From Thermoanaerobaculia bacterium (lineage in GTDB: Bacteria; Acidobacteriota; Thermoanaerobaculia; Multivoradales; JAGPDF01): DNA of 64,000 nt. How positions within the stretch are numbered: the stretch's first letter is position 1; every line of letters begins with the position of its first letter. Position numbers and translations under genes: made by a program. The stretch covers positions 497,596-561,595 of the forward strand of contig JAXLQW010000001.1 of the NCBI GenBank assembly GCA_046331385.1. Direction: 5' to 3'. Shown in pieces: positions 4,024 to 52,868 of this stretch. The notes beneath the pieces are model-generated. The model was given only the letters and a program-made list of their open reading frames with translations, was not told the DNA's origin and did no database searches.

Positions 4024-6945
4024 CTAGGGCTCGGTGGTCCACCAGCGCCGCAGGTCGCCGCTCTCGAAGTGGTCTCCGAAGAGCGGCACGGCGAGCGCCA
4101 CCGGCGAGCAGCCGGCGGATTCCGAGAAGGCGCCGTTCAAGGCCCGAAGCTCGTAGGAATGCGTCGCTCCGCCGATCGCGCCGCGGTCGACGAAAGAGAG
4201 ATGGCTGGGCGAGATCTCGGCGAGCATCGCGCCGTCGCGGTAGAGGTCGTAGCGCCAGATGCCGGATTCGGGATCGACGACCGCGCCCCAATCGAGCCGC
4301 GCGTCGTCCGGATCGAGCGTCGCCGTCGGACCGGGGCAGGGCGGGCGCGACGGATCGGCGAGGCAGGCCGACGTCTCGACGTAGAGCCGCTGCAGGTTGG
4401 AGGGCACCCAGGCGAGAGCGAGCGCGACGCCGTTCCAGGCGATCGCCGAGCGGCCGCCGCGGTTGGCGAGGAATCGTTCGCCCGGCAACAGCGTCCCGTT
4501 GGGCAGCAGAGCCACCTCGCGCAGTGCGCCGTGCAAGCCCTCGACGTGGACCAGGCGGAAGCGATCGGTGTCCCAGTAGAGCTGCGGCTGGCGATCGTCC
4601 CAGTCGGTGCTGACCGCGACGACCTCCGGGAAGGCCTTGCTGCCATCGAGGTGGAGGACGGTGAAGTAGATGTCCTGACCGGGCGGATCGAGCGGCCCCT
4701 TGATCTGCGACCAGGCGACCGCGAGCTCCTTGCCGTTCCAGGCGGCGGTGAAGCCGCCGATCGGCAGGATGTTCGGCAGCGGCGAGGCCGCGATCTGAAC
4801 CGCCGGCACCGCCACCGAGCCGTCGGGATTCAGGAGGCCGAAGTAGAGGTTGCCGTTCTGCGGCCAGAGGACGGCCCAGCCGCTCCCGACCCAGAGCAGG
4901 GCCGGTCCGGAACCGCCGCAGGAGCCGAGGACTGTCAGCTTGCCGCCCACGAGTGCGCCGCTCGGAGCCACGCGCTGGAAGGTGAGCGAGCCGTTCTCCT
5001 GCCAGAGGGCGCCGTAGACCTCGCCGTTCCACTCGAGCGCCACGGCGCGATTGGTACCCTGATCCGAGAGCTGGGTCTCGGGAAACAGGGCGCTACCCGT
5101 CGAATCGAAACGCTGGAAGAGGATGTCGTTCGTGCCGGTCTCCCGCCAGGCGAGAGCGAACGTTCCGCCGAGGCTCGCCAGGCCGGGAGTCCCGGACCCA
5201 GGTCGCGGCGGGAAGGGCAAGACGTCCGCGACCGTGGTGCCGCTGCCGTCGACGATGCGCGCGCCGAAGCGCGACGCCGCGGTCGACGCGTCGGTCCAGA
5301 CGAAGACGAAGCCGGCGCCGAGCGTCGCCGCGCGCGCGTTGCCGGGACCGTTGTTGAGGAATGCATTTCCGGGGCTGTGGCCCGCGGTGATGGTCGTGGG
5401 CGCGGAGGGCGGGTTCACTCCCGAGGCGTCGACCAGCAAGTCGGCGATCTCGTGGCTACCGCCGCCGTTGTCGTTATAGACGGCAAGAAAGCGAGTGCCG
5501 TCGGTCGCGATGCGCGGGCTCGTAGAGAACAGCGCGTCGCTCGGCGAGAGCTGGACGCGAGATCCGGTCGGATTCCCGTCCGCATCCGCCGTGAGGCGCC
5601 CGATCTCGTACGACCCTGGCGGAGTCGGATCGTCCGAGGTGGCGAAAACGGCGAAGCCCGACGGCGGTTTGGGGAAAATCTGCGGCCCGAAGTCCTCGAC
5701 AGTCGCCGGATCCGAGATCCGTTGCGGCGCGCCGATCGGCGTGCCGTCGGCGAGGAGCGTCTGGAGGTAGACCCCGCCGTCGGAGAAGGTGGGGTCGTAG
5801 GCCGTCCAGGCGACTGCCCAGTGGGTTCCGTCCCAGGCGACGTGCGTACCGTTCCAGCCGTAGGCATTCGACGAGGATGCCAGGAGAACCGGCGATTCGG
5901 CGACGCCGGTCGACTCCTCGACGCGCTGGAAGTAGACGTACCAATTCGCATGTCGGTAGGCGATCCAAGCGGCGCCGACCTTACCGAGGCTCGGGCTCCA
6001 GGCCGCGGCGACCTCGGTCTTCTTGGTCGAGGGCACGCTCGAGATGACGAGCGGGCCGAGCTCGAGGTCGCCGGTCTCGCTCCAGCGAGCGAAGGTCACC
6101 TCTTGATACGGCGCCGTATCGGTGATCCCGAGGTAGTCCCAGCGCGAGCCGTCCCAGACCAGCGCGGTCTCGAAGGAGGAGTTGATTCCGATCGGCGGAG
6201 CGGCGCCGAACGGGCGTGCCCGGGCGCGCAGCGGCGAGCCGTCGGCGCGCAAGAGCGAGAAGAAGAAATTAGCGGGATTGGCGGCTCCGGGCTCGCCGCG
6301 CATCCCTTCATAGGACACCAGGCCGAAGCGCGCGCCGTTCCAGCGCAGGGTGGGGAACTGCGACGGCGAGTCGCTCTGCGAGAGGTTGGCCGGCGACCCG
6401 ATCGGCGTGCCGTCGACTCCGGCGAGGCGCTGCAGAAAGATCTCGTTGTTGCCGGTGGCGTCGCGCTCCTGCCAGGCGGCGCCCCAGTCGACTCCGTTCC
6501 AGGCCGCAGCGGGAAAACGCGCCGACGTGAGCCCGACGTCGAGCGGGCCGACGCAGACCCTTGCCGCGACCGCGGGAAAGGTGGTGGCGGTGGCGATGTT
6601 GGAGGCGTCGCCGTCGCCCCCGGCGGTCAGGGTCACCAGCCGGTAGTAGTAGACCGTGCCGGCGGAGAGTGCCGCGTCGACGAACTCCGTGTCGTTGGCG
6701 CCGGCGGCTCCGACCGGCGCCCAAACCGTGCCGCTCGGCGAGCGCTCGACCCGAAAGCCGGTCTCGTCGGCGTTCGGATCGAGCCAGCTCAGGCGAGAAT
6801 GATCGGTGGCGGTCGGTAGCGCGTAGAGGCCGATGGCGGCGTTCGCCGCGAGCGCGGCGGGCGCCAGTCCGATCGACAGGAGGCAGCTGAGCAGGAGCGG
6901 AACGGCGACTGCACCGGCGACCGCCGAGACGGACCGAGGGGCCAT
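4024..6945 (-). CDS. Large secreted repeat protein with N- and C-terminal fibronectin-III-like domains, ~12 W-x-G-containing repeats of ~50 aa, and the shared C-terminal tag LFGDHFESGDLRRWWTTEP
   Basis: Start trimmed to the ATG at 6943-6945 (MAPRSVSAVAGAVAVPLLLSCLLSIGLAPAALAANA, a signal peptide). An aaggagg RBS lies just upstream. Repeats have the form xAWNGxxWGAAW...GNNEIFLQRL..DGTPIG. The C-terminal 18 aa match those of the proteins ending at 18085 and 44159. Confidence 0.75.
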   Translation of the reverse strand: MAPRSVSAVAGAVAVPLLLSCLLSIGLAPAALAANAAIGLYALPTATDHSRLSWLDPNADETGFRVERSPSGTVWAPVGAAGANDTEFVDAALSAGTVYYYRLVTLTAGGDGDASNIATATTFPAVAARVCVGPLDVGLTSARFPAAAWNGVDWGAAWQERDATGNNEIFLQRLAGVDGTPIGSPANLSQSDSPSQFPTLRWNGARFGLVSYEGMRGEPGAANPANFFFSLLRADGSPLRARARPFGAAPPIGINSSFETALVWDGSRWDYLGITDTAPYQEVTFARWSETGDLELGPLVISSVPSTKKTEVAAAWSPSLGKVGAAWIAYRHANWYVYFQRVEESTGVAESPVLLASSSNAYGWNGTHVAWDGTHWAVAWTAYDPTFSDGGVYLQTLLADGTPIGAPQRISDPATVEDFGPQIFPKPPSGFAVFATSDDPTPPGSYEIGRLTADADGNPTGSRVQLSPSDALFSTSPRIATDGTRFLAVYNDNGGGSHEIADLLVDASGVNPPSAPTTITAGHSPGNAFLNNGPGNARAATLGAGFVFVWTDASTAASRFGARIVDGSGTTVADVLPFPPRPGSGTPGLASLGGTFALAWRETGTNDILFQRFDSTGSALFPETQLSDQGTNRAVALEWNGEVYGALWQENGSLTFQRVAPSGALVGGKLTVLGSCGGSGPALLWVGSGWAVLWPQNGNLYFGLLNPDGSVAVPAVQIAASPLPNILPIGGFTAAWNGKELAVAWSQIKGPLDPPGQDIYFTVLHLDGSKAFPEVVAVSTDWDDRQPQLYWDTDRFRLVHVEGLHGALREVALLPNGTLLPGERFLANRGGRSAIAWNGVALALAWVPSNLQRLYVETSACLADPSRPPCPGPTATLDPDDARLDWGAVVDPESGIWRYDLYRDGAMLAEISPSHLSFVDRGAIGGATHSYELRALNGAFSESAGCSPVALAVPLFGDHFESGDLRRWWTTEP

Positions 6946-13766: not shown

Positions 13767-14600
13767 ATGAACAGGATCTGCCTCGTTTTCGGCCTCGGCC
13801 TGCTGACCGCCGCCACCGCCCGGGCGGGAAGCGGGCCGTTTTTCGACACTTACAGCCACGGCATGGAGGTCGGAGAGCTCGAGCTCGAGCTCGGAGTCGA
13901 CGCGGTGCGCTCGCCGCGAGGCGAGTGGACCTACGGACAGGTGGCCGAGTTGGAGCGCGGCTTCGATCCGCACTTCGCCTCGGCGCTCTACCTCCTGGGT
14001 ACCTGGGCGCCCGGAGAGTCGCCGCGGATCGACGGCTTCAAACTTCAGGGGCGCTTCCGCCCTTGGCTGGCGAACAACTTCTTCCTCCCGGTCTTCTACT
14101 TGGAGTACGAACAGTTCCATCATCCCGAGACCTATCGCGAGCTGGTCGTGGGCACGCTCGAAGAAGAAGAGGCGGGAGAGTTCGCGACCGAACACGAACT
14201 CGAGGGGCGCTTGATCTTCTCGCAGGACTTCGACTGGGGGAATCTGTCGCTCGACTTGGCCGCCGAGAAGAATCTCGACGGCGGCGAGATCGCCGTCGGC
14301 TATACCGTCGGTTTCTTCCTCCTGGGCCCGAATCGGATCTACTCGGGTGCGGCGGCGTTCGATCCGGACGGCGACGGCGACTCGCACCTCCTCTATGGAG
14401 TCGAGCTCTTCGGCGGGCTCGGCGAGCGGGGCGACCTGGGCCTCCACGCCGCGCGTCAGGAGCACTACCTCCAACCCTTCCTTGCGGTCCCGCTCTCCGA
14501 CCGGCTGGCGCTCAAGGCGGCGCTGGCGATCGGTTTGACTTCGGGCTCCGGCGATCTCGTGCGCGCGCTGCTCGTGGTGCGGCTGGGTCGCGCGCTCTAG
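13767..14600 (+). CDS. Hypothetical secreted protein, possibly an outer-membrane beta-barrel
   Basis: Signal peptide MNRICLVFGLGLLTAATARA. Alternating-hydrophobic, Gly/Tyr-rich beta-strand-like segments. No recognisable catalytic motif. Confidence 0.5.
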   Translation: MNRICLVFGLGLLTAATARAGSGPFFDTYSHGMEVGELELELGVDAVRSPRGEWTYGQVAELERGFDPHFASALYLLGTWAPGESPRIDGFKLQGRFRPWLANNFFLPVFYLEYEQFHHPETYRELVVGTLEEEEAGEFATEHELEGRLIFSQDFDWGNLSLDLAAEKNLDGGEIAVGYTVGFFLLGPNRIYSGAAAFDPDGDGDSHLLYGVELFGGLGERGDLGLHAARQEHYLQPFLAVPLSDRLALKAALAIGLTSGSGDLVRALLVVRLGRAL

Positions 14601-14669: not shown

Positions 14670-15083
14670 TCAGTCGGCGACGCCCGGCACCGCGCCCTCG
14701 CCCTGCGGCTCCAGACCCGCGCTCGCCGGCCGCTTGGCGTAGACCGTGGCGGGCTTTTGCAGCAGCCCGTTGTGCACGATGACGTCGTCCTCGCCGCCGA
14801 GCTCGCCGTCGGCGCCGAGGGAGACCAGGTCGTAGTGCCCGTCGTCGATCCTGCGGTATTGGAGCGGGTGCCCCCACGGATCCTCGAATGGCAGAGCGAC
14901 GCGCAGCAACGGGTCGATCTCCGCCAGCGCGTGGGGGTAGGTGTAGTTGCCCTCGGACGACGTCGCCAGGTGGTGGTTGAGGGCGTCGGCCCAGGTGATC
15001 AAGAGGTGCTCGGCGTCGCTTCGCTTGCCGCCGCAGGCGGCGAGCAGGGCGGCGATCGCCAGCGCCAACGCGATCCTTTTCAT
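14670..15083 (-). CDS. Small lipoprotein, unknown function
   Basis: Start trimmed to the ATG at 15081-15083 (MKRIALALAIAALLAACGG), which gives a lipobox LAAC. The upstream part of the ORF is GC-rich junk. Confidence 0.55.
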   Translation of the reverse strand: MKRIALALAIAALLAACGGKRSDAEHLLITWADALNHHLATSSEGNYTYPHALAEIDPLLRVALPFEDPWGHPLQYRRIDDGHYDLVSLGADGELGGEDDVIVHNGLLQKPATVYAKRPASAGLEPQGEGAVPGVAD

Positions 15084-15254
15084 GCGCGACCCTCCTCCGG
15101 AGTCCTGGTGCGCGAGTCTACCGCCGCCGCGGGTCCCGCCGCGCGCGGCTCCGGACGAGCCAGCGAAGCGCGAGCCGAGCGCCATCGAGGGTCGGTCTCG
15201 AGCCTCATGCGCGTTCGGACCGCGCGCCAGGGGACCGGATTGCGTCGCCCGCCC

Positions 15255-16357: not shown

Positions 16358-18085
16358 ATGATCGGCTCGAGGTTCCCTTGGCGCCCTCCTCGCCGGGGCG
16401 TGGCGCTCGCTCTCGCCGCCCTCGCCGGCTCGGCGATGGCGGCGCTGATCCCGATGACCGCCGCCGACTTCTGGGTCGCGGGCACGCAGACCGGCGACGT
16501 CGAAGAGGGGACCCTCCTGCCGGCGACCAACTGCCGCGCCTGCCACGGCAACTTCGATCCGGGGCGCGATCCCTGGTCGACCTGGGCCGGAAGCCTGATG
16601 GGTCTGGCGGGCCGCGATCCGCTGTTCTACGCCCAGCTGACGGCGGCCAATCAGGACGTCGGAGAGGTCGGAACCTTCTGTCTTCGCTGCCACGTACCCC
16701 TGGCCGTGATCAGCGGCCACGCCGCGGATCCCACGGGAGCGGCGCTGACCGACGACGACCGGGGCGGCGTCGATTGCCACTTCTGCCACAGCCTCGTCGA
16801 CCCGATGTACGTGGCCGGGACGAGCCCGCCCGAGGACGAAGCGGTGCTCGCCGGCCTCGCGAATCCGCCCGCCCACGTCGGCAACGCGATGTTCGTGGTC
16901 GACCCCGAGGGGCGGCGGCGGGGACCGTATTCCGACGCTAACCCGCCTCACCTCGCCTTGTCCTCGCCCTTCCACCGCCGAGCCCAGCTTTGCGGTACCT
17001 GCCACGACGTCGGCAATCTCGCGGTGTCCCGCCAGCCGGACGGGACCTACCGGTACAACGCGATCGGAGCCCCAAGTCCCGACCCCGACCCGCACGGCCA
17101 GTTCCCGCTCGAGCGCACCTTCACCGAGTGGCTGCTCAGCAGTTTCGCCAACGGCGGAGTCGACCTGGGAGGTCGATTCGGCGGCTCGCGCGGCCCTCGC
17201 GTCTCGACCTGCCAGGACTGTCATATGCCGACCCATACGGGGCGCGGCTGCTTCGCCGGACCGGAGCGGACCGACCTGGCGAGTCACGAGTTCGCCGGCG
17301 CGGCGGTTCCGGTCCTCGACCTGATCGCGGCGCAGCTCGAGTCGGACCCGAATCCGCCGGTCGATCCCAAGCAGTTGATGCTCGCGCGCGAGCGGGCGCT
17401 CTCGATGCTCCAGCGCGCCGCGAGCCTGGCGCTCTTCGAGCGCGACGGGTTGGTCGTCGCGCGGCTGGTCAATCAGACCGGGCACAAGCTGCCGACCGGG
17501 CACATCGAGGGCCGGAGGATGTGGCTGCACGTCCGCTTCCTCGACCCCGACGGCGAGGTCCTCGCCGAGTACGGTCACTACGACGCCGAGCAGGCCGAGC
17601 TCGACGAGGAGACGACGACGGTTTTCGAGATGCGGGTCGGCCTGAGCGAGGAGGCGGCCGCGGCCACGGGATTGCCGGCGGGAGTCACCGGTCACATGGC
17701 GCTTGCCGACTCGATCGTCGAAGACAATCGGATCCCCCCCCGCGGGTTCGATCCGGCGGCCTTCGCGGCGGCGGGCGCCCCGGCCGTCGGCGCCGCCTAC
17801 GCCGAGGGCCAGTTCTGGCACGACTCCATCTTCACGCCGCCGCCGGGTGCCGTCCGGGCGGAGTGCGAGGTCTACTACCAGAGCCTCCCGCGCCGATACG
17901 TCGAGGCGCTGCGCGATGGCAACGTGACCGACGACCGCGGCAAGGAGCTGGAAGAGCTGTGGGAGCGGACGGGACGGGGCGCGCCGCTGCTCATGACGGC
18001 GGCCAGCGCATTCATGACCGGGTCCTTGTTTTCCGACGGATTCGAGTCCGGCACGACCTACGCTTGGGGCGATCCGCAACCGTGA
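16358..18085 (+). CDS. Secreted pentaheme c-type cytochrome carrying the shared C-terminal tag LFSDGFESGTTYAWGDPQP
   Basis: Signal peptide MIGSRFPWRPPRRGVALALAALAGSAMAA. Five CxxCH motifs are present: CRACH, CLRCH, CHFCH, CGTCH, CQDCH. The C-terminal 18 aa match the tag at 4024 and 44159. Confidence 0.8.
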   Translation: MIGSRFPWRPPRRGVALALAALAGSAMAALIPMTAADFWVAGTQTGDVEEGTLLPATNCRACHGNFDPGRDPWSTWAGSLMGLAGRDPLFYAQLTAANQDVGEVGTFCLRCHVPLAVISGHAADPTGAALTDDDRGGVDCHFCHSLVDPMYVAGTSPPEDEAVLAGLANPPAHVGNAMFVVDPEGRRRGPYSDANPPHLALSSPFHRRAQLCGTCHDVGNLAVSRQPDGTYRYNAIGAPSPDPDPHGQFPLERTFTEWLLSSFANGGVDLGGRFGGSRGPRVSTCQDCHMPTHTGRGCFAGPERTDLASHEFAGAAVPVLDLIAAQLESDPNPPVDPKQLMLARERALSMLQRAASLALFERDGLVVARLVNQTGHKLPTGHIEGRRMWLHVRFLDPDGEVLAEYGHYDAEQAELDEETTTVFEMRVGLSEEAAAATGLPAGVTGHMALADSIVEDNRIPPRGFDPAAFAAAGAPAVGAAYAEGQFWHDSIFTPPPGAVRAECEVYYQSLPRRYVEALRDGNVTDDRGKELEELWERTGRGAPLLMTAASAFMTGSLFSDGFESGTTYAWGDPQP

Positions 18086-19612: not shown

Positions 19613-20107
19613 ATGCGCGTCCTCTATCTCCTCTCGGTCTGGATCCACCTGCTATCGGTCGTCACCTGGCTGGGCTCGACGATCTCGGTCGCGCTCATCC
19701 TGGTGCCGGCGTTGCGCCGGCGCGGAGATCGGCGGCTCACCGCCGAGCTGATGGACGCCGCCGGCCGCCGCTTGCGGACGATGGGCTGGATCGCTTTCGC
19801 GCTGCTCGCGCTCACCGGCACGACGCAGCTCTATGTGCGTGGCTTTCGGTTCGCGGACCTCACGGGTACGCTCTGGCAGGGCGAGTTCGGCCGGGCGCTG
19901 GCGGTGAAGCTCGTGCTCTTCGCGCTCGTGGTGGCGCTCTCGGCGATCCACGACTTCAGCCTCGGTCCGCGCGCCGGGCGCGCCGCGCCGGGGTCGGCCG
20001 AGGCCGAGTCCCTGCGCCGCAGGGCCTCCTGGCTCGGCCGGCTGAACCTAGTCTTCGGACTGCTGATCGTCTTCTTCGCCAGCGGCCTGGTGCGCGGCGG
20101 GCCCTGA
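19613..20107 (+). CDS. Small integral membrane protein (4 predicted TM helices; CopD/DUF4149-like)
   Basis: ATG at 19613. Four hydrophobic helices: LLSVVTWLGSTISVALILV, MGWIAFALLALTGTT, LAVKLVLFALVVALSAI, LNLVFGLLIVFFASGL. Confidence 0.5.
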   Translation: MRVLYLLSVWIHLLSVVTWLGSTISVALILVPALRRRGDRRLTAELMDAAGRRLRTMGWIAFALLALTGTTQLYVRGFRFADLTGTLWQGEFGRALAVKLVLFALVVALSAIHDFSLGPRAGRAAPGSAEAESLRRRASWLGRLNLVFGLLIVFFASGLVRGGP

Positions 20108-20647
20108 AGCGGGAGGCAGGGGGCGCAGGTCGAACACCCCTCCCGGTCCGAGCACCAGAATCCGCACTCGACCGCGGGGAAATTCGACGACGCCCGTGAA
20201 ACGCGGGCTGCCGAGCTCGGCCGTCGCCTCGGCGGGGGCGCCGGCCGGGGGCACCGGCCGGAACTCGACCTCGACGTCGTGCCGGCCGGGCGGGATCTCG
20301 AGCTGCTCTTCGACCGCCAGCGGACGGGTACGGCGGACGCCCTTGTGGCGGACCTCGCGCTCGAGCCGCGACGTGCCGTCGATCGTCACCCGCAGCCGGT
20401 AGTCGATCGCGGTTTCCTGGCACTGCCGCCTCTGGCGCATGTGCGCCGGCAGCTGGGCGAGCTCGCTCTCCGTGAGGTCGCGGCAGATCTCGATCTTGGC
20501 GTGCTCGGCGCGCAGCGCCAGGCGCAGCGCGGCCGCGGTCGCCGGCGCGCCGAGCGGCATGTGCGCCAGCGCGCCGACCGCCGCCACCAGCGCCGCCGCG
20601 AGTGCCAGGCCGGCGAGGGAACGCACGATGCGGCGGATTTCAGGCAT
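20048..20647 (-). CDS. Hypothetical protein with an N-terminal signal-anchor; last gene of the heme-copper oxidase operon
   Basis: ATG lies 2 nt after the stop of the upstream cytochrome b fusion gene. N-terminus MPEIRRIVRSLAGLALAAALVAAVGALA. No recognisable domain. Confidence 0.45.
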   Translation of the reverse strand: MPEIRRIVRSLAGLALAAALVAAVGALAHMPLGAPATAAALRLALRAEHAKIEICRDLTESELAQLPAHMRQRRQCQETAIDYRLRVTIDGTSRLEREVRHKGVRRTRPLAVEEQLEIPPGRHDVEVEFRPVPPAGAPAEATAELGSPRFTGVVEFPRGRVRILVLGPGGVFDLRPLPPASGPAAHQAAGEEDDQQSED

Positions 20648-22247
20648 GCGCCACCTCGACGCCAGCCTCGCTCTCGGCGGGGGTCTCGCACACCAGCTCC
20701 GGCTCCCAAGCTTCGACCGTGCCGCCGCCGAGCCGGTCGACCCGCGCTTCGAGATCGCCGAGCGCCGCGACGATGCGCGGCCACTCGCCGGGCGAGAAGC
20801 TCGCGACTTCGACGCGCAGGCGATCGACCCGCTCCGGCAGCTCGGCCTCGCGGCCGTCGAAGACGCGCGCCGCCAGCCACTTCGGGCCTTCGCGGAAATA
20901 GCAGTCGCGCGGCGAGCAGGTGAGCAGGAAAACTCCGCCGGCGCCGCGGCGCAGGAGCAGCTCGAGCACCGAGGTGTGCACCGATCCGCCGCAGCCGGTG
21001 GGCAGGATGGAGCGCTGCGGGCCGGCGAGCCGGGCGAGCGTCGCGGCGTGCCCGTTGGCGCAGCCGAGGATCACGATCTGGCGCGGTCCGGGGCGCTCGC
21101 GTTCGAGAAAAGCGCGCGCCGCCGCGAGCTGATCGCGGCCGGTGCGCTCGGCGGGGCCGACGCCCATCGGCGCGCAGGAGCCGGCGCAGATGCCGCAGCC
21201 GACGCAGCGCGTCGGATCGACGCGCGCCACCAGCGGCGAGTGCTGGCGCTCGGCGAGCGTGCGCGGCACCATGGCGATCGCCTCGTAGGGGCAGTCCTGA
21301 TAGCAGTTGGTGCAGCCCGTGCAGTGGTCCTCGTCGACGAAGGAGGGCGCGATCTCGCGCCGCGGCCGCCAGAGCCAGGGCAGCGCGACGAGCAGCGAGA
21401 AGAGCGCCAGCCAGAAGCCGAGGTGGGCGAGCGGCTCGACGCGCTGGGCGAGCGGCAGCCAGAAGGCGAAGAAGAGATCGGTCGCCAGGCGGTCCGGCAG
21501 CTGCGTCAGATCGGCGGCGGGTGGCAGGCGGACCGGCGCCACCGCAGCGTAGACCACCAAGAGCGCCAGGACGTAGCGGCGAACGGCGCGCGGCGGCAGG
21601 AGCGCGGGGCGGGCGAGGCGCGAGACGTGCAGCCAGAGGACAGCGGCGATGCCGAGCGGCAGGGCGACGTGCAGGAACAGGTTCATGAAGAAGAACGACG
21701 ACGGGATCGGCGTCTCGCCGCTGAAGTTGCGCGCGATGGGTTCGGAGAAGATGGGCAGCAGGTCGGCGAGCCGCGCCCCCTCGACCGCGATCTGCTGGCC
21801 CTGGCGGTCCCAGACCATCACCAGGCCGGTCCAGCCGGAGAGCAGCACCACCCCGAGCAGCACGATGCCGGAGATCCAGGCGACCGCCCGCGGACCCCAA
21901 GTTTGGCCGTGCGCCAGCTTGCGCAGCAGGTGCAGGATGACGGCGACGATCGCCAGGTCGGCGCTGTAGCGGTGCATCGAGCGCGCCCAGGCGCCGAGGA
22001 AGACCCGCTGCTGGATCTCCACCACCGAGCCGTGGGCATCGGCGATGCGGTAGAAGAGGAAGAGGTAGAGACCGGTCGCCAGGGTAACCAGGAAGAAGAG
22101 GATCGCCAGGTTGCCGCTTTGGTAGATCGGATTGAAGCGTGAGCCGTAGAGACGGTCGAAGAGCCGGTCGAGGAGCGCCAGCAGGCGGCCGAGGCTGCGG
22201 CCGATGGCCGGCGGACCCGCGGCGCCGGCGGCCGGCTTGGAGCTCAC
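20640..22247 (-). CDS. Fusion protein: cytochrome b N-terminal-like membrane domain + 4Fe-4S dicluster ferredoxin + MvhD/FlpD-like domain
   Basis: Membrane part (FNPIYQSGNLAILFFLVTLATGLYL, MHRYSADLAIVAVILHLLRKLAHG) resembles the cytochrome b/b6 N-terminal domain. Two Fe-S motifs follow: CTGCTNCYQDCP and CVGCGICAGSCAP. A C-terminal Cys-rich segment (GCANGHA...CGGS...CSPRDC) matches the FlpD/MvhD pattern. Proposed GTG start at 22245-22247 overlaps the SCO1 stop (GTGA); this start is uncertain. The ORF's longer N-terminal extension is Arg/Pro-rich junk. Confidence 0.6.
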   Translation of the reverse strand: MSSKPAAGAAGPPAIGRSLGRLLALLDRLFDRLYGSRFNPIYQSGNLAILFFLVTLATGLYLFLFYRIADAHGSVVEIQQRVFLGAWARSMHRYSADLAIVAVILHLLRKLAHGQTWGPRAVAWISGIVLLGVVLLSGWTGLVMVWDRQGQQIAVEGARLADLLPIFSEPIARNFSGETPIPSSFFFMNLFLHVALPLGIAAVLWLHVSRLARPALLPPRAVRRYVLALLVVYAAVAPVRLPPAADLTQLPDRLATDLFFAFWLPLAQRVEPLAHLGFWLALFSLLVALPWLWRPRREIAPSFVDEDHCTGCTNCYQDCPYEAIAMVPRTLAERQHSPLVARVDPTRCVGCGICAGSCAPMGVGPAERTGRDQLAAARAFLERERPGPRQIVILGCANGHAATLARLAGPQRSILPTGCGGSVHTSVLELLLRRGAGGVFLLTCSPRDCYFREGPKWLAARVFDGREAELPERVDRLRVEVASFSPGEWPRIVAALGDLEARVDRLGGGTVEAWEPELVCETPAESEAGVEVAHA

Positions 22248-23188
22248 CGCGCCGGCTCCGCCGAGCGCCGCAGAGCCTCGACGAGCCAGGCCGGTGAGGG
22301 ATTGAGGAAGCGGTAGGCGAGACGGCCCTCGGGATCGACCACGAAGGCGAGCCCCGGGTGGACGATGTCGCCGGTCGCCAGGTCCCGGCTGGCGCCGATT
22401 CCCCAGGCGTCGTGGGTCGCGGTCACGGCGGAGATCTCTCCCGAGAGGACGCGTGCGTCGGGATCGTCCGCGAGCTGCCACTGCGCGGCGATCGAGGACA
22501 GCGATCCTACCGTGTCGCGCCACGGGTCGAGCGTCACCACCACGATCGCCGGACGCAGCGCCGGCGGCGAGAGATCGCGTGCCCGGCGCAGAGTGGCGAC
22601 CAGCACCGGACAGACGGTCCGGCAGTGGGCGAAAGCGAAAGTGACCAGCGCCGGCCGTCCGCGCAGGGAGGCGAGGTCGAAGCTCGCACCTCCGGCCGCG
22701 GTGAGCCGGAGCGGCGGCGCGGGATCGCCGCCGCGCGGATAGAACTCGGGCAGGGGCTCGGGCGCCGCCTCGGCGCCGATCGCCCGCCCGGCGCGGGCCG
22801 CGGAGGCGACGCGGTCGCCGAGCCAGATGGCGCCGACGGCGAGCGCCAGAGCGAGCGTGCCGAGGAGCGTCGCGCCGGCGAGCCGGCCCGAGAGCCAGGC
22901 GAGGCCGGCGCGCAGCTCCCGTCCCCAGACGACGAGCAAGAAGCCGAGCATCGAGGCGGGGCCGAGGACGAGGAGCATCCAGCCGTAGTCGTCGGGCAGG
23001 CCGCTCGGCAGGGTGCCGAAGCAGATCGCCCGCGTCCGGGTCAGCCAGTCCGGTGGGAGAGAAAGCGGAGCGAACGCCAGGGCCCACCAGAGCCCGGTCA
23101 CCGCCAGCCAGCCGAAGAACGCGGCGAGCGGGAACGGGGCCGGGCGAGGCTCGGCGCCGGTGGGCGCCATGGCGTCCGCGTGCGACAC
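22244..23188 (-). CDS. SCO1/SenC family copper chaperone with an N-terminal membrane domain
   Basis: Thioredoxin-like domain with a CxxxC motif (FAFAHCRTVCP) and a downstream His (ATHDAWG). Two or three hydrophobic helices at the N-terminus. Confidence 0.7.
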   Translation of the reverse strand: MSHADAMAPTGAEPRPAPFPLAAFFGWLAVTGLWWALAFAPLSLPPDWLTRTRAICFGTLPSGLPDDYGWMLLVLGPASMLGFLLVVWGRELRAGLAWLSGRLAGATLLGTLALALAVGAIWLGDRVASAARAGRAIGAEAAPEPLPEFYPRGGDPAPPLRLTAAGGASFDLASLRGRPALVTFAFAHCRTVCPVLVATLRRARDLSPPALRPAIVVVTLDPWRDTVGSLSSIAAQWQLADDPDARVLSGEISAVTATHDAWGIGASRDLATGDIVHPGLAFVVDPEGRLAYRFLNPSPAWLVEALRRSAEPAR

Positions 23189-24965: not shown

Positions 24966-25539
24966 GCTCGACCTCCTTGGCGAGCGCGGAGACCCGCGCC
25001 GCCGGCTCGACCACGATGCGGCCGAGCATGGTGTGGTGATTGATGCCGCAGAACTCGTTGCAGACGATGCGGTAGTCGCCGGGCTTGTTGGGCTGGATGG
25101 TGAGCCCGTAGTCGTAGCCCGGGACGATCTGGATATTGAGGTTCGCCGGATAGAGGCTGAAGCCGTGATTGACGTCGATCGACGAGAGGTGGATGGTGTA
25201 GCTCGCCCCTTCTTGCAGCTTCAGCGCCGGATACCAGCGCCACATCTGGGCCATCAGGTAGACGTCGCTGCCGGGCGGCGGTGCGACCAGCGGAATGCCG
25301 TTCTCCTCGCCGATCTTGTACTCCTCGACGAAGCGGAAGACGCGCGCCACGTAGTCCTCGGGCTTGACCCGCGAGCGGATGCCCGAAGGGTTCTGGCCGC
25401 CGCGCAGATGCCAGAAGGGCATCATCGCGAACAGCACCATGCACCAGCAGAAAGCGATCGCCACCCACAGGCGCTCCTGCTTGCCCGCGGGTCGCCACCA
25501 CACGCCCTGCGGAGTCACGATTCCGGAATGGAGCTCCAT
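24952..25539 (-). CDS. Heme-copper oxidase subunit II with a complete CuA centre
   Basis: Single N-terminal TM helix and a cupredoxin domain. CuA ligands H..CNEFCGINHHTM are present. ATG at 25537-25539 lies 9 nt from the IS end. Confidence 0.8.
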   Translation of the reverse strand: MELHSGIVTPQGVWWRPAGKQERLWVAIAFCWCMVLFAMMPFWHLRGGQNPSGIRSRVKPEDYVARVFRFVEEYKIGEENGIPLVAPPPGSDVYLMAQMWRWYPALKLQEGASYTIHLSSIDVNHGFSLYPANLNIQIVPGYDYGLTIQPNKPGDYRIVCNEFCGINHHTMLGRIVVEPAARVSALAKEVEHERR

Positions 25540-25548
25540 CGCATCTCC

Positions 25549-36206: not shown

Positions 36207-36283
36207 GCCTTCCCTCCGAAAGGAATTGCTTATTTCACTGAAGCATATCGCGAAAAAGCCCGGATCTCAAGCTGTTCGATCGT

Positions 36284-39161: not shown

Positions 39162-42100
39162 ATGACCAGGCGGACGGGGAACCGGTTGACCGCGCTCGAT
39201 TTGGCCTTGCGCAGCCTCGCCTGGACCGCGTTCTCCGTCCTGATCGCCTCGCCCCTGCTCGGTTCGGGCGAATCGGTCCCGTTCAACGCAGTCCACGTCC
39301 CTCCCGGCGCGACGGTCACCATCACCTTCGACGTCGACGTCGACGATCCGCTCGGCGTCTGCGCCACCGCGATCTCGAATCAGGGCAGCGTCACTTCGAC
39401 CAACCACGCGAGCGTCCTCACCGACGACACGGCCGTGGGCGGCGGCGCCGACCCGACGGTCACGGGGCTCGACGCGGTCGACCTCGCGATCACCAAGACC
39501 GACGGCGTCGCGAGCGAGACCCCCGGCACCGCGATCACGTACACCATCACCGCCTCGAACGCCGGACCCTCGGGCGCGACCGGAGCTCTCGTCGCCGACA
39601 CCTTTCCGGCGACGGTCACCGGCGTGACCTGGACCTGCGTCGGCGCCGGCGGCGGCACCTGCGCGGCGAGCGGCTCGGGGAACCTCAACCAGTCGGTCAA
39701 CCTGCCGGCCGGCGGCTCGGTCACCTTCACCGTTTCGGGATCGATCTCGCCGAGCGCCACCGGCAGCCTGACCAACACCGCCACGGTGACCAAGCCGGCC
39801 GCGGTGCTCGAGTGCAACCTGGCGAACAACTCGGCGACCGACACCGACACCCTGAGCCCGCAGGCCGACGTCTCGATCACCAAGACCGACGGCGTCGCGA
39901 GCGTCGACGCCGGGAGCAACACGACTTATACGATCACCGCTTCGAACGCCGGCCCGAGCGACGCGCCGAACGCCGGGGTGGCCGACACGTTCCCGGCGGA
40001 GATCACCGGCGTCGCTTGGACCTGTGTCGGCGCGGGTGGCGGTACCTGCGCCGCGAGCGGCAGCGGCAACCTCAGCCAGAGCGTGAGCCTCCCGGCCGGC
40101 GGCTCGGTCACCTTCACCGCCGTCGCCTCGGTGTCGGGCTCCGCGACCGGATCGCTGGTCAACACCGCGACGGTCTCCTCGGGCGCCGGCGTGACCGACC
40201 CGGCCCCCGGCAACAACAGCGCCACCGACACCGACACGATCAACCCGGTGGCGGATCTCGCGATCTCGAAGAGCGACGGCACGACGACGGTGGTCCCCGG
40301 GCTCGCGACCGCGTACACGATCGTGGCCTCGAACGCCGGCCCGGCGACGGCGACCGGCGCGACGGTGGCGGACACCTTCCCGGCGGCCTGCGCGTCGGTG
40401 ACCTGGACCTGCGTCGGCGCGGGTGGCGGTACCTGCACGGCGAGCGGGTCGGGCAACATTTCCGACAGCGTCAATCTCCCCTCGGGCGGCAGCGCGACCT
40501 ACACCGCGGTCTGCACCACGGCCGCCAACGCGAGCGGCAGCCTCTCGAACACCGCCACCATCTCCGGCGGCGGCGTCAGCGACACGAACGCCGGCAACAA
40601 CTCGGCGACCGACACCGACACCTTCCTGCCGCTCGACTTCGGCGACGCCCCGGACGCCTCGATCGGCGCGCCCTGGGCCTATCCGACGAAGCTGGCGAAC
40701 GATGGCGCGCGCCACGGCGTCAACGGCCCGATCGCGCTGCGCTTCGGCGCCCAGATCGACACCGAGACCGACGGCCAGCCGACGGCGAACGCCGACGGCG
40801 ACGACGCGAACCCGGCGCTCGCGCCTGACGACGAGGACGGCATCACGCTGCCGACCTTCCTCGTCGCCTGCGAGAGCGCGAGCGTCACCGTCAACGCCTC
40901 GGCGATCGCCAAGCTCGATGCTTTCGTCGACTTCAACCGCGACGGCGACTTCGCCGACGCGGGCGAGAAGATCTTCAGCAGCCAGGCGCTGGTCGCGGGC
41001 GCGAACCCGCTCAACTTCACCGTTCCCTGCGGCGCCACCCCGACCGCGCTGACCTTCGCCCGCTTCCGCATCTCGACCGCCGGCGGCCTGTCGTACGACG
41101 GCGTCGCCGCCGACGGCGAGGTCGAGGACTACCCGGCCGCCGTTCGCGGTCTCGACTTCGGCGATGCCCCCGTCGTCTACGCGACGCTCTTCGCCGACAA
41201 CGGCGCCCGCCACGTCGTCACCGGTAGCGGCCCGGTGCTCGGCGCGGTCGCTCCGGACACCGAGGCGGACGGGCAGCCGACCGCCGGCGCCACCGGCGAC
41301 GACGCCAACGGGGTCGACGACGAGGACGGCGTCAGCTTCACCTCGCCGCTGCTGCGCGGGCAGAACGCCACGGTCACCGTTACCGCCTCGGCGGCCGGAG
41401 TGCTCAACGCCTGGCTCGACTTCAACGGCGACGGCAACTGGACCACCGCCGGCGATCAGATCTTCACCAACCAGGCGCTCGCCGCCGGGGCCAACCTACT
41501 CACCTTCGCGGTGCCGGCGACCGCGACGACCAACCTATCGACGGTGTCGCGTTTCCGGATCGCCACCGCGCCCGGCCTGTCGTTCAACGGCTTGGCGCAG
41601 AACGGCGAGGTCGAGGACCATGCGGTGGCGACGGCGGCCGAGGCCGACCTCTCGATCGCCAAGAGCGACGGTTCCGCGACCGAGGTTCCGGGCACGACGG
41701 TGACCTACACGATCGTCGCTGCGAACGCCGGGCCGGACGCCGCCACCGGCGTCACCGTCGCCGACACGTTCCCGGGGATCCTCTCCGGCTGCACCTGGAC
41801 GAGCATCGCCGCGGGCGGCGCCACCGGCAACGCCGCTGCGGGGAGCGGAAATATCTCCAACGGCGGCATCAACCTGCCGAGCGGCGCCTCGGTCACCTAC
41901 ACCGTGACCTGCACGATCGCCGCGAGCGCCACCGGGACTCTGACGAACACCGCCACGAGCTCGGTACCAGTCGGTCTCAACGACCCGGTCCCGGGCAACA
42001 ACAGCGCCACCGACGCCGACACGCTGACCCCGCAGACCGATCTCGCGGTCACCAAGACCGACGGCTCGGCGACGGAGGTTCCGGGCACCTCGGTGAGCTA

Positions 42101-44159
42101 CACCATCGTCGCTTCGAATGCCGGCCCGTCCGACGCCGTCGCGGCTTCGGTCGCCGATTCCTTCCCGGCGACGATCACCGGCGTCGCCTGGACCTGCGTC
42201 GGCGCCGGGGGCGGGACCTGCCCGGCGAGCGGCAGCGGCAACATCTTCGCCAGCGTGAACTTGCCGGTGGGCGGTTCGGCGACCTTCACCGCCACCGGCA
42301 CGATCTCGGCCGCGGCGACCGGGAGCCTCGCGAACACCGCCACCGTCGCCGCGGGCGCCGGGGCGACCGATCCGACGCCCGGCAACAACAGCGCCACCGA
42401 CACCGACACCCTGACGCCGCAGGTCGACCTCGCGATCAGCAAGAGCGACGGCTCGGCGACGGAGGTTCCGGGGACGCCGGTCACCTACTCGATCGCGGTC
42501 GGCAATGCCGGCCCCTCGAACGCCGTTGCCGCGGTGGTCGCCGACACCTTCCCGGCGGCGATCTCCGGGGTCGCCTGGACCTGCGCCGGCGCCGGCGGTG
42601 GCACTTGCCCGGCCGCGGGCTCCGGCAACCTCAACACCGCGGTCAACGTACCGGTCGGCGGCACGGTGACCTTCACCGCCACCGGCACGATCGCCTCCTC
42701 GGCCACGGGAACCCTGTCGAACACCGCGACGGTCACCGCCGCCGGCGGCACGACCGACACCAACGCGGGCAACAACAGCGCGACCGACACCGACACGCTG
42801 ACGCCGCAGGCGGACCTGCAGATCACCAAGGACGACAGCGCCGACCCGCCGCCGGCGGGGGAGAATCTGGTCTACACCCTCACGGTGCACAACTTCGGTC
42901 CGTCCGACGCCGCCGGCGTCGCGGTGAGCGATCCGCTGCCCGCCGCCGTGACCTACGTCTCCGATACCTGCGGCGGCACCAACACGCCGCCGTGGAGCTG
43001 GACGATCGGCGCCCTGGCGAGCGGCGCGACGGTGTCGTGCGACATCACGGTGTCGATCAACCCGGCGCCGCCGATCTCGATCTCCAACACCGCCTCGGTC
43101 ACCGCGACGACGCCGGACCTGGTCGCGGGGAACAACTCGGATACCGAGACCACGCAGCTCGACGCCATCCCGCCGACGGTCGACAACGTCGATTCGCAGG
43201 CCGGCACCGGCGACGGCACCCTCGCCGACTGCGAGACCGCCACCGCGCCGATCCACCACCTGCTCCTCGCCTTCAGCGAGGCGATGGCGAATCCGCCGGG
43301 CGACGGGGGAGCGAACGACGTCACCAACCCGGCCAACTACCTGCTGGTCAGCGCGGGGGCCGACTTCGACTTCTCGACCACGGCCTGCGGCGGCGCAGCG
43401 GGCGACGACCTCGCCATCCCGGTCGTCGGGGTGGCGTACAACGGCGGGACGGACACCGCGAGCCTCGACCTCGGCGGGGCGCTCGCCCCGGCGCAGTACC
43501 GACTCTTCGCTTGCGACACGCTGACCGATCTCGCGGGCAACCCGCTCGACGGCGACCTCGACACCACGGCGGGGGGAGATTTCCTCCGCCGCTTCCGCGC
43601 CGACTCCGACGACCTGTTCGCCAACGCGCACTTCGACTGCAGCCTGGCGGGTTGGACGGCGAGCGCGCCGGCCCCGGGCGAGGTCACCTGGACGGGAGCC
43701 GAGGACGCCGACGGCGCCGACGACTCGGGCGCCGTGCGCGTCACCAACCTCGCCCCCGGCGTCGACACGAGCTTCGCGCTCGCCCAGTGCTACGACCTGC
43801 CGGCGGCGGTGCCCTACCAGGTGCGGGCACGGCTGCGGCTCGACGCCGCGCCAGGGGTGCTGGTCGGCCTGACGCGCGCCTGCACCTTCTACAATGGCCC
43901 GGCCTGCGCCGGCGGATCGACGACCCAGTCGGACACCGTTCTGCTCGGCAGCACCGGCGGGAGCTGGATTCCGCTGGTCAAGACGGTCACGCCACCGGTC
44001 TCGGCGCTCTCGGCACTGTGCACCTTCCGTTGGGACACGCCGGTCGCAGCGGGTTTCGATTCCTTCCTCGACGCCGCCTTCTTCGGCGCGACGGGGCAGC
44101 TGTTCTCGGACGGCTTCGAGACCGGCGACACTTCACGTTGGTCGGCGACCGTGCCTTGA
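39162..44159 (+). CDS. Giant secreted adhesin-like protein with ~7 DUF11 repeats and GEVED-type motifs, ending in the shared C-terminal tag LFSDGFETGDTSRWSATVP
   Basis: The true start is probably the ATG at 39162 (MTRRTGNRLTALDLALRSLAWTAFSVLIASPLLGSG), which has a ggagagg RBS. Upstream, the ORF is antisense to gspE and EamA. Repeats follow the pattern L[AS]I[TS]K[TS]DG...TYTI.ASNAGPS.A....ADTFPA..TGV.WTC. Interspersed DFGDAPD...NDGARH...GEVED[YH] segments are present. Confidence 0.8.
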   Translation: MTRRTGNRLTALDLALRSLAWTAFSVLIASPLLGSGESVPFNAVHVPPGATVTITFDVDVDDPLGVCATAISNQGSVTSTNHASVLTDDTAVGGGADPTVTGLDAVDLAITKTDGVASETPGTAITYTITASNAGPSGATGALVADTFPATVTGVTWTCVGAGGGTCAASGSGNLNQSVNLPAGGSVTFTVSGSISPSATGSLTNTATVTKPAAVLECNLANNSATDTDTLSPQADVSITKTDGVASVDAGSNTTYTITASNAGPSDAPNAGVADTFPAEITGVAWTCVGAGGGTCAASGSGNLSQSVSLPAGGSVTFTAVASVSGSATGSLVNTATVSSGAGVTDPAPGNNSATDTDTINPVADLAISKSDGTTTVVPGLATAYTIVASNAGPATATGATVADTFPAACASVTWTCVGAGGGTCTASGSGNISDSVNLPSGGSATYTAVCTTAANASGSLSNTATISGGGVSDTNAGNNSATDTDTFLPLDFGDAPDASIGAPWAYPTKLANDGARHGVNGPIALRFGAQIDTETDGQPTANADGDDANPALAPDDEDGITLPTFLVACESASVTVNASAIAKLDAFVDFNRDGDFADAGEKIFSSQALVAGANPLNFTVPCGATPTALTFARFRISTAGGLSYDGVAADGEVEDYPAAVRGLDFGDAPVVYATLFADNGARHVVTGSGPVLGAVAPDTEADGQPTAGATGDDANGVDDEDGVSFTSPLLRGQNATVTVTASAAGVLNAWLDFNGDGNWTTAGDQIFTNQALAAGANLLTFAVPATATTNLSTVSRFRIATAPGLSFNGLAQNGEVEDHAVATAAEADLSIAKSDGSATEVPGTTVTYTIVAANAGPDAATGVTVADTFPGILSGCTWTSIAAGGATGNAAAGSGNISNGGINLPSGASVTYTVTCTIAASATGTLTNTATSSVPVGLNDPVPGNNSATDADTLTPQTDLAVTKTDGSATEVPGTSVSYTIVASNAGPSDAVAASVADSFPATITGVAWTCVGAGGGTCPASGSGNIFASVNLPVGGSATFTATGTISAAATGSLANTATVAAGAGATDPTPGNNSATDTDTLTPQVDLAISKSDGSATEVPGTPVTYSIAVGNAGPSNAVAAVVADTFPAAISGVAWTCAGAGGGTCPAAGSGNLNTAVNVPVGGTVTFTATGTIASSATGTLSNTATVTAAGGTTDTNAGNNSATDTDTLTPQADLQITKDDSADPPPAGENLVYTLTVHNFGPSDAAGVAVSDPLPAAVTYVSDTCGGTNTPPWSWTIGALASGATVSCDITVSINPAPPISISNTASVTATTPDLVAGNNSDTETTQLDAIPPTVDNVDSQAGTGDGTLADCETATAPIHHLLLAFSEAMANPPGDGGANDVTNPANYLLVSAGADFDFSTTACGGAAGDDLAIPVVGVAYNGGTDTASLDLGGALAPAQYRLFACDTLTDLAGNPLDGDLDTTAGGDFLRRFRADSDDLFANAHFDCSLAGWTASAPAPGEVTWTGAEDADGADDSGAVRVTNLAPGVDTSFALAQCYDLPAAVPYQVRARLRLDAAPGVLVGLTRACTFYNGPACAGGSTTQSDTVLLGSTGGSWIPLVKTVTPPVSALSALCTFRWDTPVAAGFDSFLDAAFFGATGQLFSDGFETGDTSRWSATVP

Positions 44160-50111: not shown

Positions 50112-50120
50112 GAGGGCGCC

Positions 50121-50642: not shown

Positions 50643-50657
50643 GGAGGGCAACCGGTC

Positions 50658-52803: not shown

Positions 52804-52868
52804 CTCCTATCCCTCCAAGGAAGTGAGCTGTGATCCTAACCCGCCGCGGCCTGCCGTCCGGCCGGGCC

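Follow-up and report, generated by a model that had tools for sequence, protein, structure and literature searches.

The tagged cytochrome and its structural model

The stretch of DNA analysed here (the window: 64,000 nucleotides of contig JAXLQW010000001.1, assembly GCA_046331385.1, from a Thermoanaerobaculia bacterium of the Acidobacteriota) encodes a 575-residue c-type cytochrome with five heme-binding motifs, a predicted export signal and a short C-terminal tag, and the same tag terminates two other large secreted proteins of the window. The features of the three tagged genes, located by open reading frame (ORF) analysis, sequence inspection, an AlphaFold2 model and a hidden Markov model (HMM) of the tag, are as follows.

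16358..18085, forward strand: tagged pentaheme c-type cytochrome gene (ORF and translation; 575 residues, stop codon included)
16358..16441, forward strand: predicted Sec signal peptide, residues 1-28, cleavage after AMA (sequence inspection)
16532..16546, forward strand: heme motif 1, CRACH (C59-H63), invariant in 121/121 sequences
16679..16693, forward strand: heme motif 2, CLRCH (C108-H112), invariant
16775..16789, forward strand: heme motif 3, CHFCH (C140-H144), invariant
16991..17005, forward strand: heme motif 4, CGTCH (C212-H216), invariant
17210..17224, forward strand: heme motif 5, CQDCH (C285-H289), invariant
17420..18013, forward strand: C-terminal beta-sandwich domain, residues 355-552 (DSSP strands in the AlphaFold2 model)
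18026..18082, forward strand: C-terminal tag LFSDGFESGTTYAWGDPQP, residues 557-575 (tag HMM 37.1 bits, terminal at the stop codon)
4024..6945, reverse strand: FN3-containing secreted protein of 973 residues (fn3 match), ending in PLFGDHFESGDLRRWWTTEP before the stop codon (tag about 4027-4086; terminal tag HMM match)
39162..44159, forward strand: DUF11/GEVED giant surface protein of 1665 residues, ending in LFSDGFETGDTSRWSATVP before the stop codon (tag 44100-44156; terminal tag HMM match)

The cytochrome ORF runs from an ATG at 16358 to a stop codon at 18083-18085, and its product is a 100% match to U0X73_02165, a hypothetical protein from a Thermoanaerobaculia metagenome-assembled genome (MAG), where its contig is 4.5 Mb long. 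The NCBI start for U0X73_02165 lies 14 codons further in (16400 instead of 16358), yielding 561 residues; this shorter form retains the hydrophobic core of the signal peptide and loses its basic n-region. The longer form is favoured, since homologs retain basic residues ahead of the hydrophobic core. As judged by eye, the N-terminus (MIGSRFPWRPPRRGVALALAALAGSAMA, followed by ALIP) combines a basic n-region, a hydrophobic core and an AxA cleavage site; the region forms a helix (residues 12-27) in the AlphaFold2 model and has equivalents at the N-termini of homologs. Exactly five CxxCH motifs are present (at C59, C108, C140, C212 and C285), variants of the CxxxCH or CxxCK type are absent from the 575-residue protein, and all five motifs are invariant in the 121 aligned sequences (query and 120 homologs). 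The description given in the initial annotation, i.e., a 575-residue protein with a signal peptide and five CxxCH motifs, is thus borne out, the signal peptide by inspection.

Conservation extends well beyond the heme motifs. Five His (141, 198, 310, 376 and 382) and five Met are invariant in the 121-sequence alignment and suffice for six-coordination of all hemes, while about 130 columns, non-heme loops included, are invariant across the family. The beta-sandwich holds an invariant loop (N372-x2-GHKLPTGHIEGRR387, or N-x2-GHKLPTGHIEGRR), which, together with a DNRIPPRGF motif, is also kept in a paralog of 31% identity. As both are kept even at this distance, they point to a specific functional site, and, since non-heme motifs are invariant too, the protein seems to have a defined enzyme or partner site and not to be a simple wire.

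The AlphaFold2 model, built from 50 homologs (predicted local distance difference test score, pLDDT, 89.7; predicted template modelling score 0.88), comprises a helical heme domain followed by a beta-sandwich (residues ~355-552). The tag is undocked and unstructured in the model, with pLDDT values of 70, 50 and 45 for successive blocks of residues 551-575; a re-prediction from tag-bearing homologs alone gave a poor model overall (pLDDT 50.3). In Foldseek searches the sole significant match in the PDB was 5ZE8, the pentaheme cytochrome c552 of Thermochromatium tepidum (E 6.8e-14, probability 1.00, TM-score 0.65 by target and 0.46 by query, 18% identity). A profile search returned a weak match to the same entry over hemes 1-3, and the beta-sandwich gave weak Foldseek matches to Ig-like, ApaG and SOR folds. 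Its five CxxCH motifs, c552-like fold and beta-sandwich at the C-terminal end make the cytochrome a new member of a known fold class, to which T. tepidum c552, MccSep and PtdA also belong.

More than 3,752 proteins match the cytochrome at E<=1e-5. The best 120 of them are 55-68% identical to it, none bears a family name, and they originate from Vicinamibacteria, Phycisphaerae, Lysobacterales (Dokdonella, Chiayiivirga) and Polyangiaceae. All Pfam matches are sub-threshold: MtrC-MtrF_II-IV (PF22113) reaches 24.4 bits against a gathering threshold of 30 over residues 49-145, and Cytochrome_C7 23.1 against 24.8. The only NCBIfam match, to ExtKL (NF040886), is local, lies in the beta-sandwich (residues 364-418) and scores 25.5 bits against a cut-off of 250.

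A C-terminal hairpin shared by unrelated exported proteins

Applied to the six-frame translation of the window, the tag HMM gave exactly three significant matches, all of them terminal at a stop codon: the DUF11 protein (45.2 bits; seven DUF11 repeats and two GEVED domains), the FN3 protein (37.4) and the cytochrome (37.1). Since the next best match scored 7.5 bits, the sharing is far beyond chance, and the earlier claim that the cytochrome, the DUF11 adhesin and the FN3-repeat protein carry one and the same C-terminal tag is confirmed. The consensus is [LIV]F-x-DGFESGDTSAWS-x-x-VP before the stop codon, spelled [LIV]F-x-D-G-F-E-S-G-D-T-S-A-W-S-x-x-V-P. A word-index search with a profile of the tag alone yielded 281 short proteins or pieces of genes (<=75 residues), a set informative on the motif and not on the passengers; its consensus is [LIV]F[AS]DGFESGDTSAWSATVP before the stop codon, the sequences upstream of the motif are mutually unrelated, and of the best 120 of the 281 matches, 105 have the first Phe of the motif exactly 18 residues before the end. 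An exhaustive HMMER scan of 1.84 billion cluster representatives yielded 7,656 tag matches at E<=1e-3. No Pfam or NCBIfam model fell on the tag when the three window proteins and ten perfect-consensus proteins were scanned. Full-text literature searches for the motif returned irrelevant matches only, and nothing relevant was found in the literature on acidobacterial sorting signals and "choice-of-anchor" proteins.

The distribution of the tag was surveyed by scanning one genome per GTDB species for DNA encoding GFESGDTSAW, which gave at least 120 loci, several of them from the same genomes; the counts in this and the following two paragraphs refer to the matches and loci listed. Nearly all matches belong to Acidobacteriota (Thermoanaerobaculia, Holophagae, "Ca. 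Multivoradales" and Sulfomarinibacteraceae), with single ones in a Polyangiaceae MAG, a "Deltaproteobacteria" MAG and Kangiella. Among the copies with a complete 3' end, 113 of 129 (88%) lie within 20 residues of the stop codon, 79 of 129 stand at exactly the modal distance from it and about five are truly internal. Among the 79 modal copies there is variation at third codon positions and in the choice of Ser codon (TCN as well as AGC), and each of the three stop codons is used; residues outside the search pattern are still conserved (F in 71/79, D in 77/79, the terminal P in 70/79), and the three tags of the window have just 42-65% DNA identity. Taken together, the synonymous variation, the conserved residues and the low DNA identity indicate selection on the peptide, and not on a nucleic-acid element or a recently spread cassette. 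A conserved DNA or RNA element at gene ends is ruled out by the same synonymous variation and the 42-65% nucleotide identity.

The passengers of the tag are highly diverse. The 78 tagged ORFs comprise 64 Pfam families, including InhA-like MAM proteins, S8 subtilases, trypsin-like, M6 and M14 peptidases, FG-GAP, BNR, LVIVD, GSDH (dehydrogenases of the pyrroloquinoline quinone, PQQ, type) and Laminin_G_3, as well as beta-helix, PMP-repeat, PKD and cadherin-like domains. Perfect-consensus tagged proteins show a similar range, one of them matching the NCBIfam family "choice-of-anchor B". Multiheme cytochromes account for three of 88 tagged ORFs (loci L006, L086 and L097): those of L006 and L086 belong to the superfamily of the window cytochrome, in which they make up a paralogous subfamily (31% identity to the window protein, E 1e-67), while that of L097 is a 243-residue tetraheme protein unrelated to it except for the tag. 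The proposed check for other tagged redox proteins therefore returned two further multiheme cytochrome types along with the PQQ-type GSDH dehydrogenases; tagged redox proteins exist, as a minority of a general exoproteome.

Two unusual arrangements were noted at tagged loci. At L016 (3065-7152) and L035 (214-3112), two or three paralogous tagged genes of ~450-480 residues each stand in tandem arrays, with tag-coding matches 1.3-1.45 kb apart. One protein, encoded on the reverse strand of L060 (tag at offset 2488 of the reverse complement), has a hydrophobic helix and a basic tail behind the tag (...GFETGDTSAWSTVIPALFGDGPLVNGMLLVLMVAGAAVMRLKER before the stop codon) and so unites the hairpin with a C-terminal signal of the helix type, a rare combination.

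The origin of the tag can be traced through proteins bearing several copies. The top-scoring tag-HMM proteins have 2-6 copies at a spacing of 190-290 residues, and in these multi-copy proteins the Pfam profiles Polysacc_lyase (PF14099) and CBM_4_9 (PF02018) start at the motif, which is why the motif is read as the first beta-hairpin of concanavalin-like jelly-roll domains. As judged from the sequence, the tag is homologous to this hairpin, with the rest of the domain absent: the cytochrome ends 18 residues past the first Phe of the motif and lacks a complete jelly-roll domain of ~140-210 residues, while it has the terminal HMM match and the predicted N-terminal signal peptide by which an orphan-hairpin tag is recognised. 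The signature G-D-T occurs in 45 of 57 terminal copies, whereas copies at domain starts mostly read G-D/N-L or G-D-F; such a change from Leu or Phe to Thr is as expected if a buried hydrophobic residue has become exposed. In some proteins full domains are followed by a terminal orphan hairpin. Free-standing copies also occur right after a signal peptide (P0324), between Pro/Ser/Gly-rich linkers (P0248, P0268, P0312 and P0307) and in tandem at the C-terminus (P0270, P0345 and P0317). These N-terminal, internal and tandem copies mark the hairpin as a small autonomous module, usually but not always terminal.

One reading of this origin is that the tag is a functionless remnant hairpin left after loss of a C-terminal concanavalin-like domain, in line with the homology to the start of PF14099 and CBM_4_9 and with the proteins that end in an orphan hairpin behind full domains. 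It is very improbable in view of the near-identical 18-mers borne by passengers of dozens of unrelated kinds, the constant spacing from the stop codon, the free synonymous sites next to conserved amino acids, the systematic Leu/Phe to Thr replacement that marks terminal copies, and the retention of the tag among cytochrome orthologs with variable linkers. Most likely, the tag is an undescribed, lineage-specific C-terminal anchor or sorting module of unusual origin, i.e., an orphan jelly-roll hairpin.

Anchor swapping, gene context and candidate roles

The C-termini of the 120 closest cytochrome homologs were classified by regular expressions and corrected by eye. All share a common core up to ...LW..TGRGAPI.MA and diverge thereafter. 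Dockerin/EF-hand-like repeats follow the core in ~54 of the 120, several with precomputed PF00404 matches (at the position equivalent to the tag in P0064, P0106 and P0108); short ends exactly at ...[LIV][FL]xDGFE or DGFD are found in ~38, mostly of the Lysobacterales type; the full tag in 20; helices like IPTL/PEP-CTERM in three (one with PF18203); an extra Cys-containing domain in three; and a bare end in two. The half-tag ends (P0022, P0032, P0036, P0049, P0055, P0060 and others) correspond to the first strand of the tag, without SGDTSAWS..VP. Among cytochrome orthologs the tag is kept although the linker before it varies. "Choice-of-anchor" is the name that NCBI curators give to families whose members carry varied C-terminal anchors. 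Of the indirect evidence, such swapping speaks most strongly for a cytochrome that operates while tethered to some structure beyond the cytoplasmic membrane, and it indirectly suggests that the tag is the local equivalent of dockerin-like and CTERM-type anchors.

On these grounds, the tag of the exported pentaheme cytochrome may serve as a module for docking to, or retention at, the surface or matrix, a reading to which an even chance is given. Export via Sec and periplasmic heme attachment would come first, with the type II secretion system as the default guess for crossing the outer membrane. The hairpin would then dock its passengers to a common receptor or matrix component via beta-strand addition, so that the docked proteins, the cytochrome included, would be held at the cell surface or in the extracellular matrix, and the cytochrome would act as a surface-tethered redox protein. 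Several points weigh against this reading: a processed export signal would also account for the strict terminal position of most tags; MccSep, the characterised structural relative, is located in the periplasm; the tag of the cytochrome itself is a divergent copy (GTTYAWGDPQP); the low AlphaFold2 confidence of the tag could partly stem from gappy alignment columns; and no receptor, sorting enzyme or dedicated secretion gene was found next to the tagged genes of the window and of the 120 loci listed.

A processed export signal is the main alternative. In that case the tag would be a true outer-membrane translocation or sorting signal, read at the C-terminus by dedicated machinery and probably removed, as are the C-terminal domains (CTD) of the type IX secretion system (T9SS) and the exosortase signals. 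The fixed distance to the stop codon with 88% of the listed copies terminal, the great diversity of passengers and the alternation with IPTL/PEP-CTERM-like sorting helices in the cytochrome family agree with such a signal. The motif, however, is without a transmembrane helix and falls far short of the length of a T9SS CTD; copies also occur after signal peptides, between linkers and in tandem; dockerin-like binding modules are the most frequent alternative at the same position; candidate machinery is missing near the tagged genes of the loci listed, and no curated sorting-signal model matches. A sorting signal is accordingly regarded as possible but rather unlikely, and docking is favoured over it because of the non-terminal and tandem copies and the mostly dockerin-like modules at the same position. 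The initial annotation had all three tagged proteins routed by a common pathway to a shared destination, with the tag as a possible marker of the outer surface. No routing machinery was found near the tagged genes, and the N-terminal, internal and tandem copies fit a binding module better than an export signal confined to the C-terminus. A shared destination, at the surface or outside the cell, is supported by the dockerin- and CTERM-type alternatives at the tag position in the cytochrome family, and the role as a marker agrees with passengers typical of surface and secreted proteins.

How docking might work is a more speculative matter. The tag could be a donor beta-hairpin for a receptor on the outer membrane or in the matrix, where it would complete a partial concanavalin-like domain or extend its edge. 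This would amount to a non-covalent, previously unrecognised form of surface display in Acidobacteriota, by analogy with the donor-strand complementation of chaperone-usher pili; a low probability is assigned to it. If true, it would provide a modular external display of redox proteins, with multiheme cytochromes among the cargo, in abundant soil and sediment bacteria.

Machinery was sought by clustering the ORFs around the tagged genes of the 120 loci listed, which gave no candidate for an adjoining sorting enzyme or receptor. Neighbours that recur, in 3-5 loci each, are pairs of an extracytoplasmic function (ECF) sigma factor and a Ser/Thr kinase with tetratricopeptide repeats (TPR), an ABC ATPase, a sulfatase and MscS. 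At L010, L015, L027, L052 and L074, the pair of ECF sigma factor (PF07638) and TPR-bearing Ser/Thr kinase stands beside tagged beta-helix-type proteins; this recurrence suggests a regulatory pairing, not a sorting function. The window also has the following two genes, and nothing ties either of them to the tag:

14670-15086, reverse strand: GspG-like lipoprotein, upstream of the cytochrome gene on the opposite strand
36284-38047, reverse strand: T2SSE/MshEN ATPase

The cytochrome gene itself appears to stand alone. Upstream, on the opposite strand, lies an FkbO-like chorismatase; an NMO-family oxidoreductase follows downstream on the same strand, as does a CopD-like membrane protein; beyond them, on the opposite strand, are a cytochrome b/4Fe-4S/FlpD fusion, COX1 and COX2. 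The unannotated neighbours at 13767-14600 and 20048-20647 have no match in the PDB or NCBIfam. Three distant homologs reside in unrelated contexts (next to an Rrf2 regulator; beside a nos cluster with ScdA/hemerythrin; after U32 peptidases), and none of these three shows a conserved cytochrome operon. No porin, multiheme partner or porin-cytochrome cluster was found in the window or at the three distant homolog loci. At the P0025 locus the Rrf2 regulator is directly upstream of the cytochrome homolog. The dockerin-bearing Phycisphaeraceae homolog P0105 (loci L004/L005) adjoins nosZ-nosD-nosF-nosY(-nosL), a ScdA/hemerythrin gene and a Fer4_5 protein, and a type II CRISPR-Cas9 locus lies on its other side. 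The nos-cluster and Rrf2 neighbours hint, if weakly, at a connection with the metabolism of nitrogen oxides or the stress that they cause.

This context bears on extracellular electron transfer, which the initial annotation had suggested on the strength of a multiheme cytochrome with a surface tag. In such a role the tagged cytochrome would be an outer-surface terminal reductase or conduit to minerals or cells, and a multiheme, exported protein that has its tag in common with surface adhesins would suit it, as would the other tagged multiheme cytochromes of related genomes and the weak similarities to MtrC/MtrF-domain and cytochrome c7 families in Pfam. Moreover, a cultured species, Thermoanaerobaculum aquaticum, is able to reduce Fe(III) and Mn(IV). 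Against it stand the absence of a porin or periplasmic multiheme partner nearby and of conserved synteny, the sub-threshold PF22113 score (24.4 against 30 bits), the presence of only five hemes, and the ~130 invariant columns, which include non-heme loops and would suit an enzyme or a site specific to a partner. The family is furthermore abundant in Lysobacterales, Phycisphaerae and Vicinamibacteria, groups that are not known for metal respiration. With neither a porin-cytochrome cluster nor conserved synteny, and with the MtrC-like match below threshold, the suggestion finds no backing here; extracellular electron transfer is a possibility without specific support and an improbable one.

The structural matches raise a different alternative, in which the cytochrome would be a periplasmic redox enzyme or carrier and the tag, instead of placing it at the cell surface, might dock it to a partner in the periplasm or at the inner leaflet. 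Structurally, c552 is the only significant match. MccSep/ExtKL of Geobacter, which shares the arrangement of five hemes followed by an Ig-like domain, is a selenoenzyme of the periplasm (10.1101/2025.11.18.688581), and 97% of its homologs are predicted to be periplasmic (10.1101/2025.11.18.688581). Heme 2 of MccSep is His/Cys-ligated, and a selenocysteine reaches in from the Ig-like domain (10.1101/2025.11.18.688581). The sub-threshold ExtKL match of the window cytochrome sits in the beta-sandwich loop. The catalytic site, nevertheless, is not conserved: of the non-motif cysteines, C298 is present in 108 of 121 sequences and C503 in two of 121, and because C298 is the sole candidate and is not invariant, neither a His/Cys catalytic heme of the MccSep type nor the selenocysteine/cysteine site is conserved. 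NF040886 reaches 25.5 of the 250 bits of its cut-off; the other passengers of the tag are adhesin-like giants, proteases and propellers typical of exoproteomes; and the dockerin-like and PEP-CTERM-type appendages of homologs are associated with surface proteins. A periplasmic role is hence considered doubtful.

The remaining genes of the window are housekeeping genes and one transposase, a DDE_Tnp_1_4 protein (25660-26946, forward strand) in a stretch of lower GC content (~65% versus ~71% elsewhere in the window). The reverse-strand ORFs 20640-23087, 23193-24965 and 24952-25548 hold the fusion downstream of the cytochrome, an unusual 815-residue protein of cytochrome b, 4Fe-4S dicluster and FlpD/MvhD-like parts, together with the COX2 and COX1 heme-copper oxidase genes, directly downstream of which it is encoded. 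Directly after the tagged DUF11 giant comes a second giant (44253-49064, forward strand; ~1,600 residues; Big_9, cadherin-like and DUF11 matches), which is without the tag and ends in ...GGAACPLP. A phage tail collar/Gp10_C domain protein (50112-50642, forward strand) is followed by an unannotated 250-residue protein (50643-51395, forward strand); its context is chromosomal, other phage genes not being in sight.

Beyond the single gene, Thermoanaerobaculia and Holophagae, abundant and mostly uncultured bacteria, have a large exoproteome of varied composition that is marked by the tag and invisible to current annotation. LPXTG, PEP-CTERM and the T9SS CTD were likewise lineage-specific tags, each of which led to sorting or anchoring machinery and to prediction of the surface proteome. 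If the hairpin is a docking or sorting element, its partner would be a new piece of acidobacterial cell-envelope biology, and the tag HMM would list exposed proteins, multiheme cytochromes and PQQ-type dehydrogenases among them. The cytochrome family, large, without a name or known function, spread over four phyla and with near-universal anchors, is worth biochemical characterisation in its own right.

Comparison with known systems

The closest structural counterpart, T. tepidum c552 (5ZE8), shares five c-type hemes and the overall fold with the window cytochrome, which is ~140-190 residues longer, bears the tag and is part of another, far larger family. According to the preprint on PtdA, c552 has no known function (10.1101/2023.11.21.568154). 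PtdA, a c552-like pentaheme protein with a beta-sandwich, has its gene beside a porin (10.1101/2023.11.21.568154); in the proposed ptd porin-cytochrome operon it adjoins porin and multiheme genes, whereas the window gene is alone, and the likeness to PtdA is by description. MccSep/ExtKL (GSU2937-2936), a pentaheme selenoprotein polysulfide reductase, shares the five CxxCH motifs and an Ig-like C-terminal domain, whose loop points to the hemes. It is periplasmic and untagged, whereas the window cytochrome has neither a selenocysteine nor an in-frame UGA and stays far below the NF040886 cut-off. MtrC and OmcA are likewise exported multiheme cytochromes, with a known or proposed location at the cell surface, and the window cytochrome is weakly PF22113-like over residues 49-145. 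It differs in having five hemes instead of ten, no MtrAB-type partners nearby and another fold match; membership of the MtrC family is ruled out by the PF22113 score.

The tag can be set beside several classes of C-terminal module. Dockerins and "choice-of-anchor" modules, like the tag, are short C-terminal modules on many unrelated secreted proteins; the tag comprises 18-20 residues, without EF-hand calcium-binding repeats and without a known cohesin-like partner, and PF00404 (dockerin) has no match on the window cytochrome. PEP-CTERM, IPTL-CTERM and the T9SS CTD are, as the tag is, C-terminal signals on diverse Sec-exported surface proteins within a lineage. The tag, in contrast to PEP-CTERM and IPTL-CTERM, is without a transmembrane helix or basic tail, ends in ...AWGDPQP in the cytochrome and can be non-terminal; compared with the T9SS CTD, it has ~19 residues, unstructured in the model, and no beta-sandwich of 70-100 residues. 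NCBIfam scans of tagged proteins with TIGR04174, PEP-CTERM, TIGR04183 and TIGR04131 gave no match.

Two small proteins of the window resemble IPTL-CTERM at their ends: 35646-36266 (reverse strand; ...EVPTLNFAGLAALALALAAASVLLLRRRRA) and 52216-52806 (reverse strand; ...IPTLSQIGLALFLLVLLGASLLILRRRRSA). The NCBIfam IPTL_CTERM and midcut-by-XrtH matches on these proteins are sub-threshold, that of IPTL_CTERM being on 35646-36266. A second, helix-type C-terminal signal therefore exists in the window beside the hairpin tag.

Concanavalin-like domains (PF14099, PF02018), lastly, share the pattern F-x-D-G-F-E-S-G-D-x-S-x-W with the tag; it lacks their remaining ~170-270 residues and has Thr where they bury a Leu or Phe.

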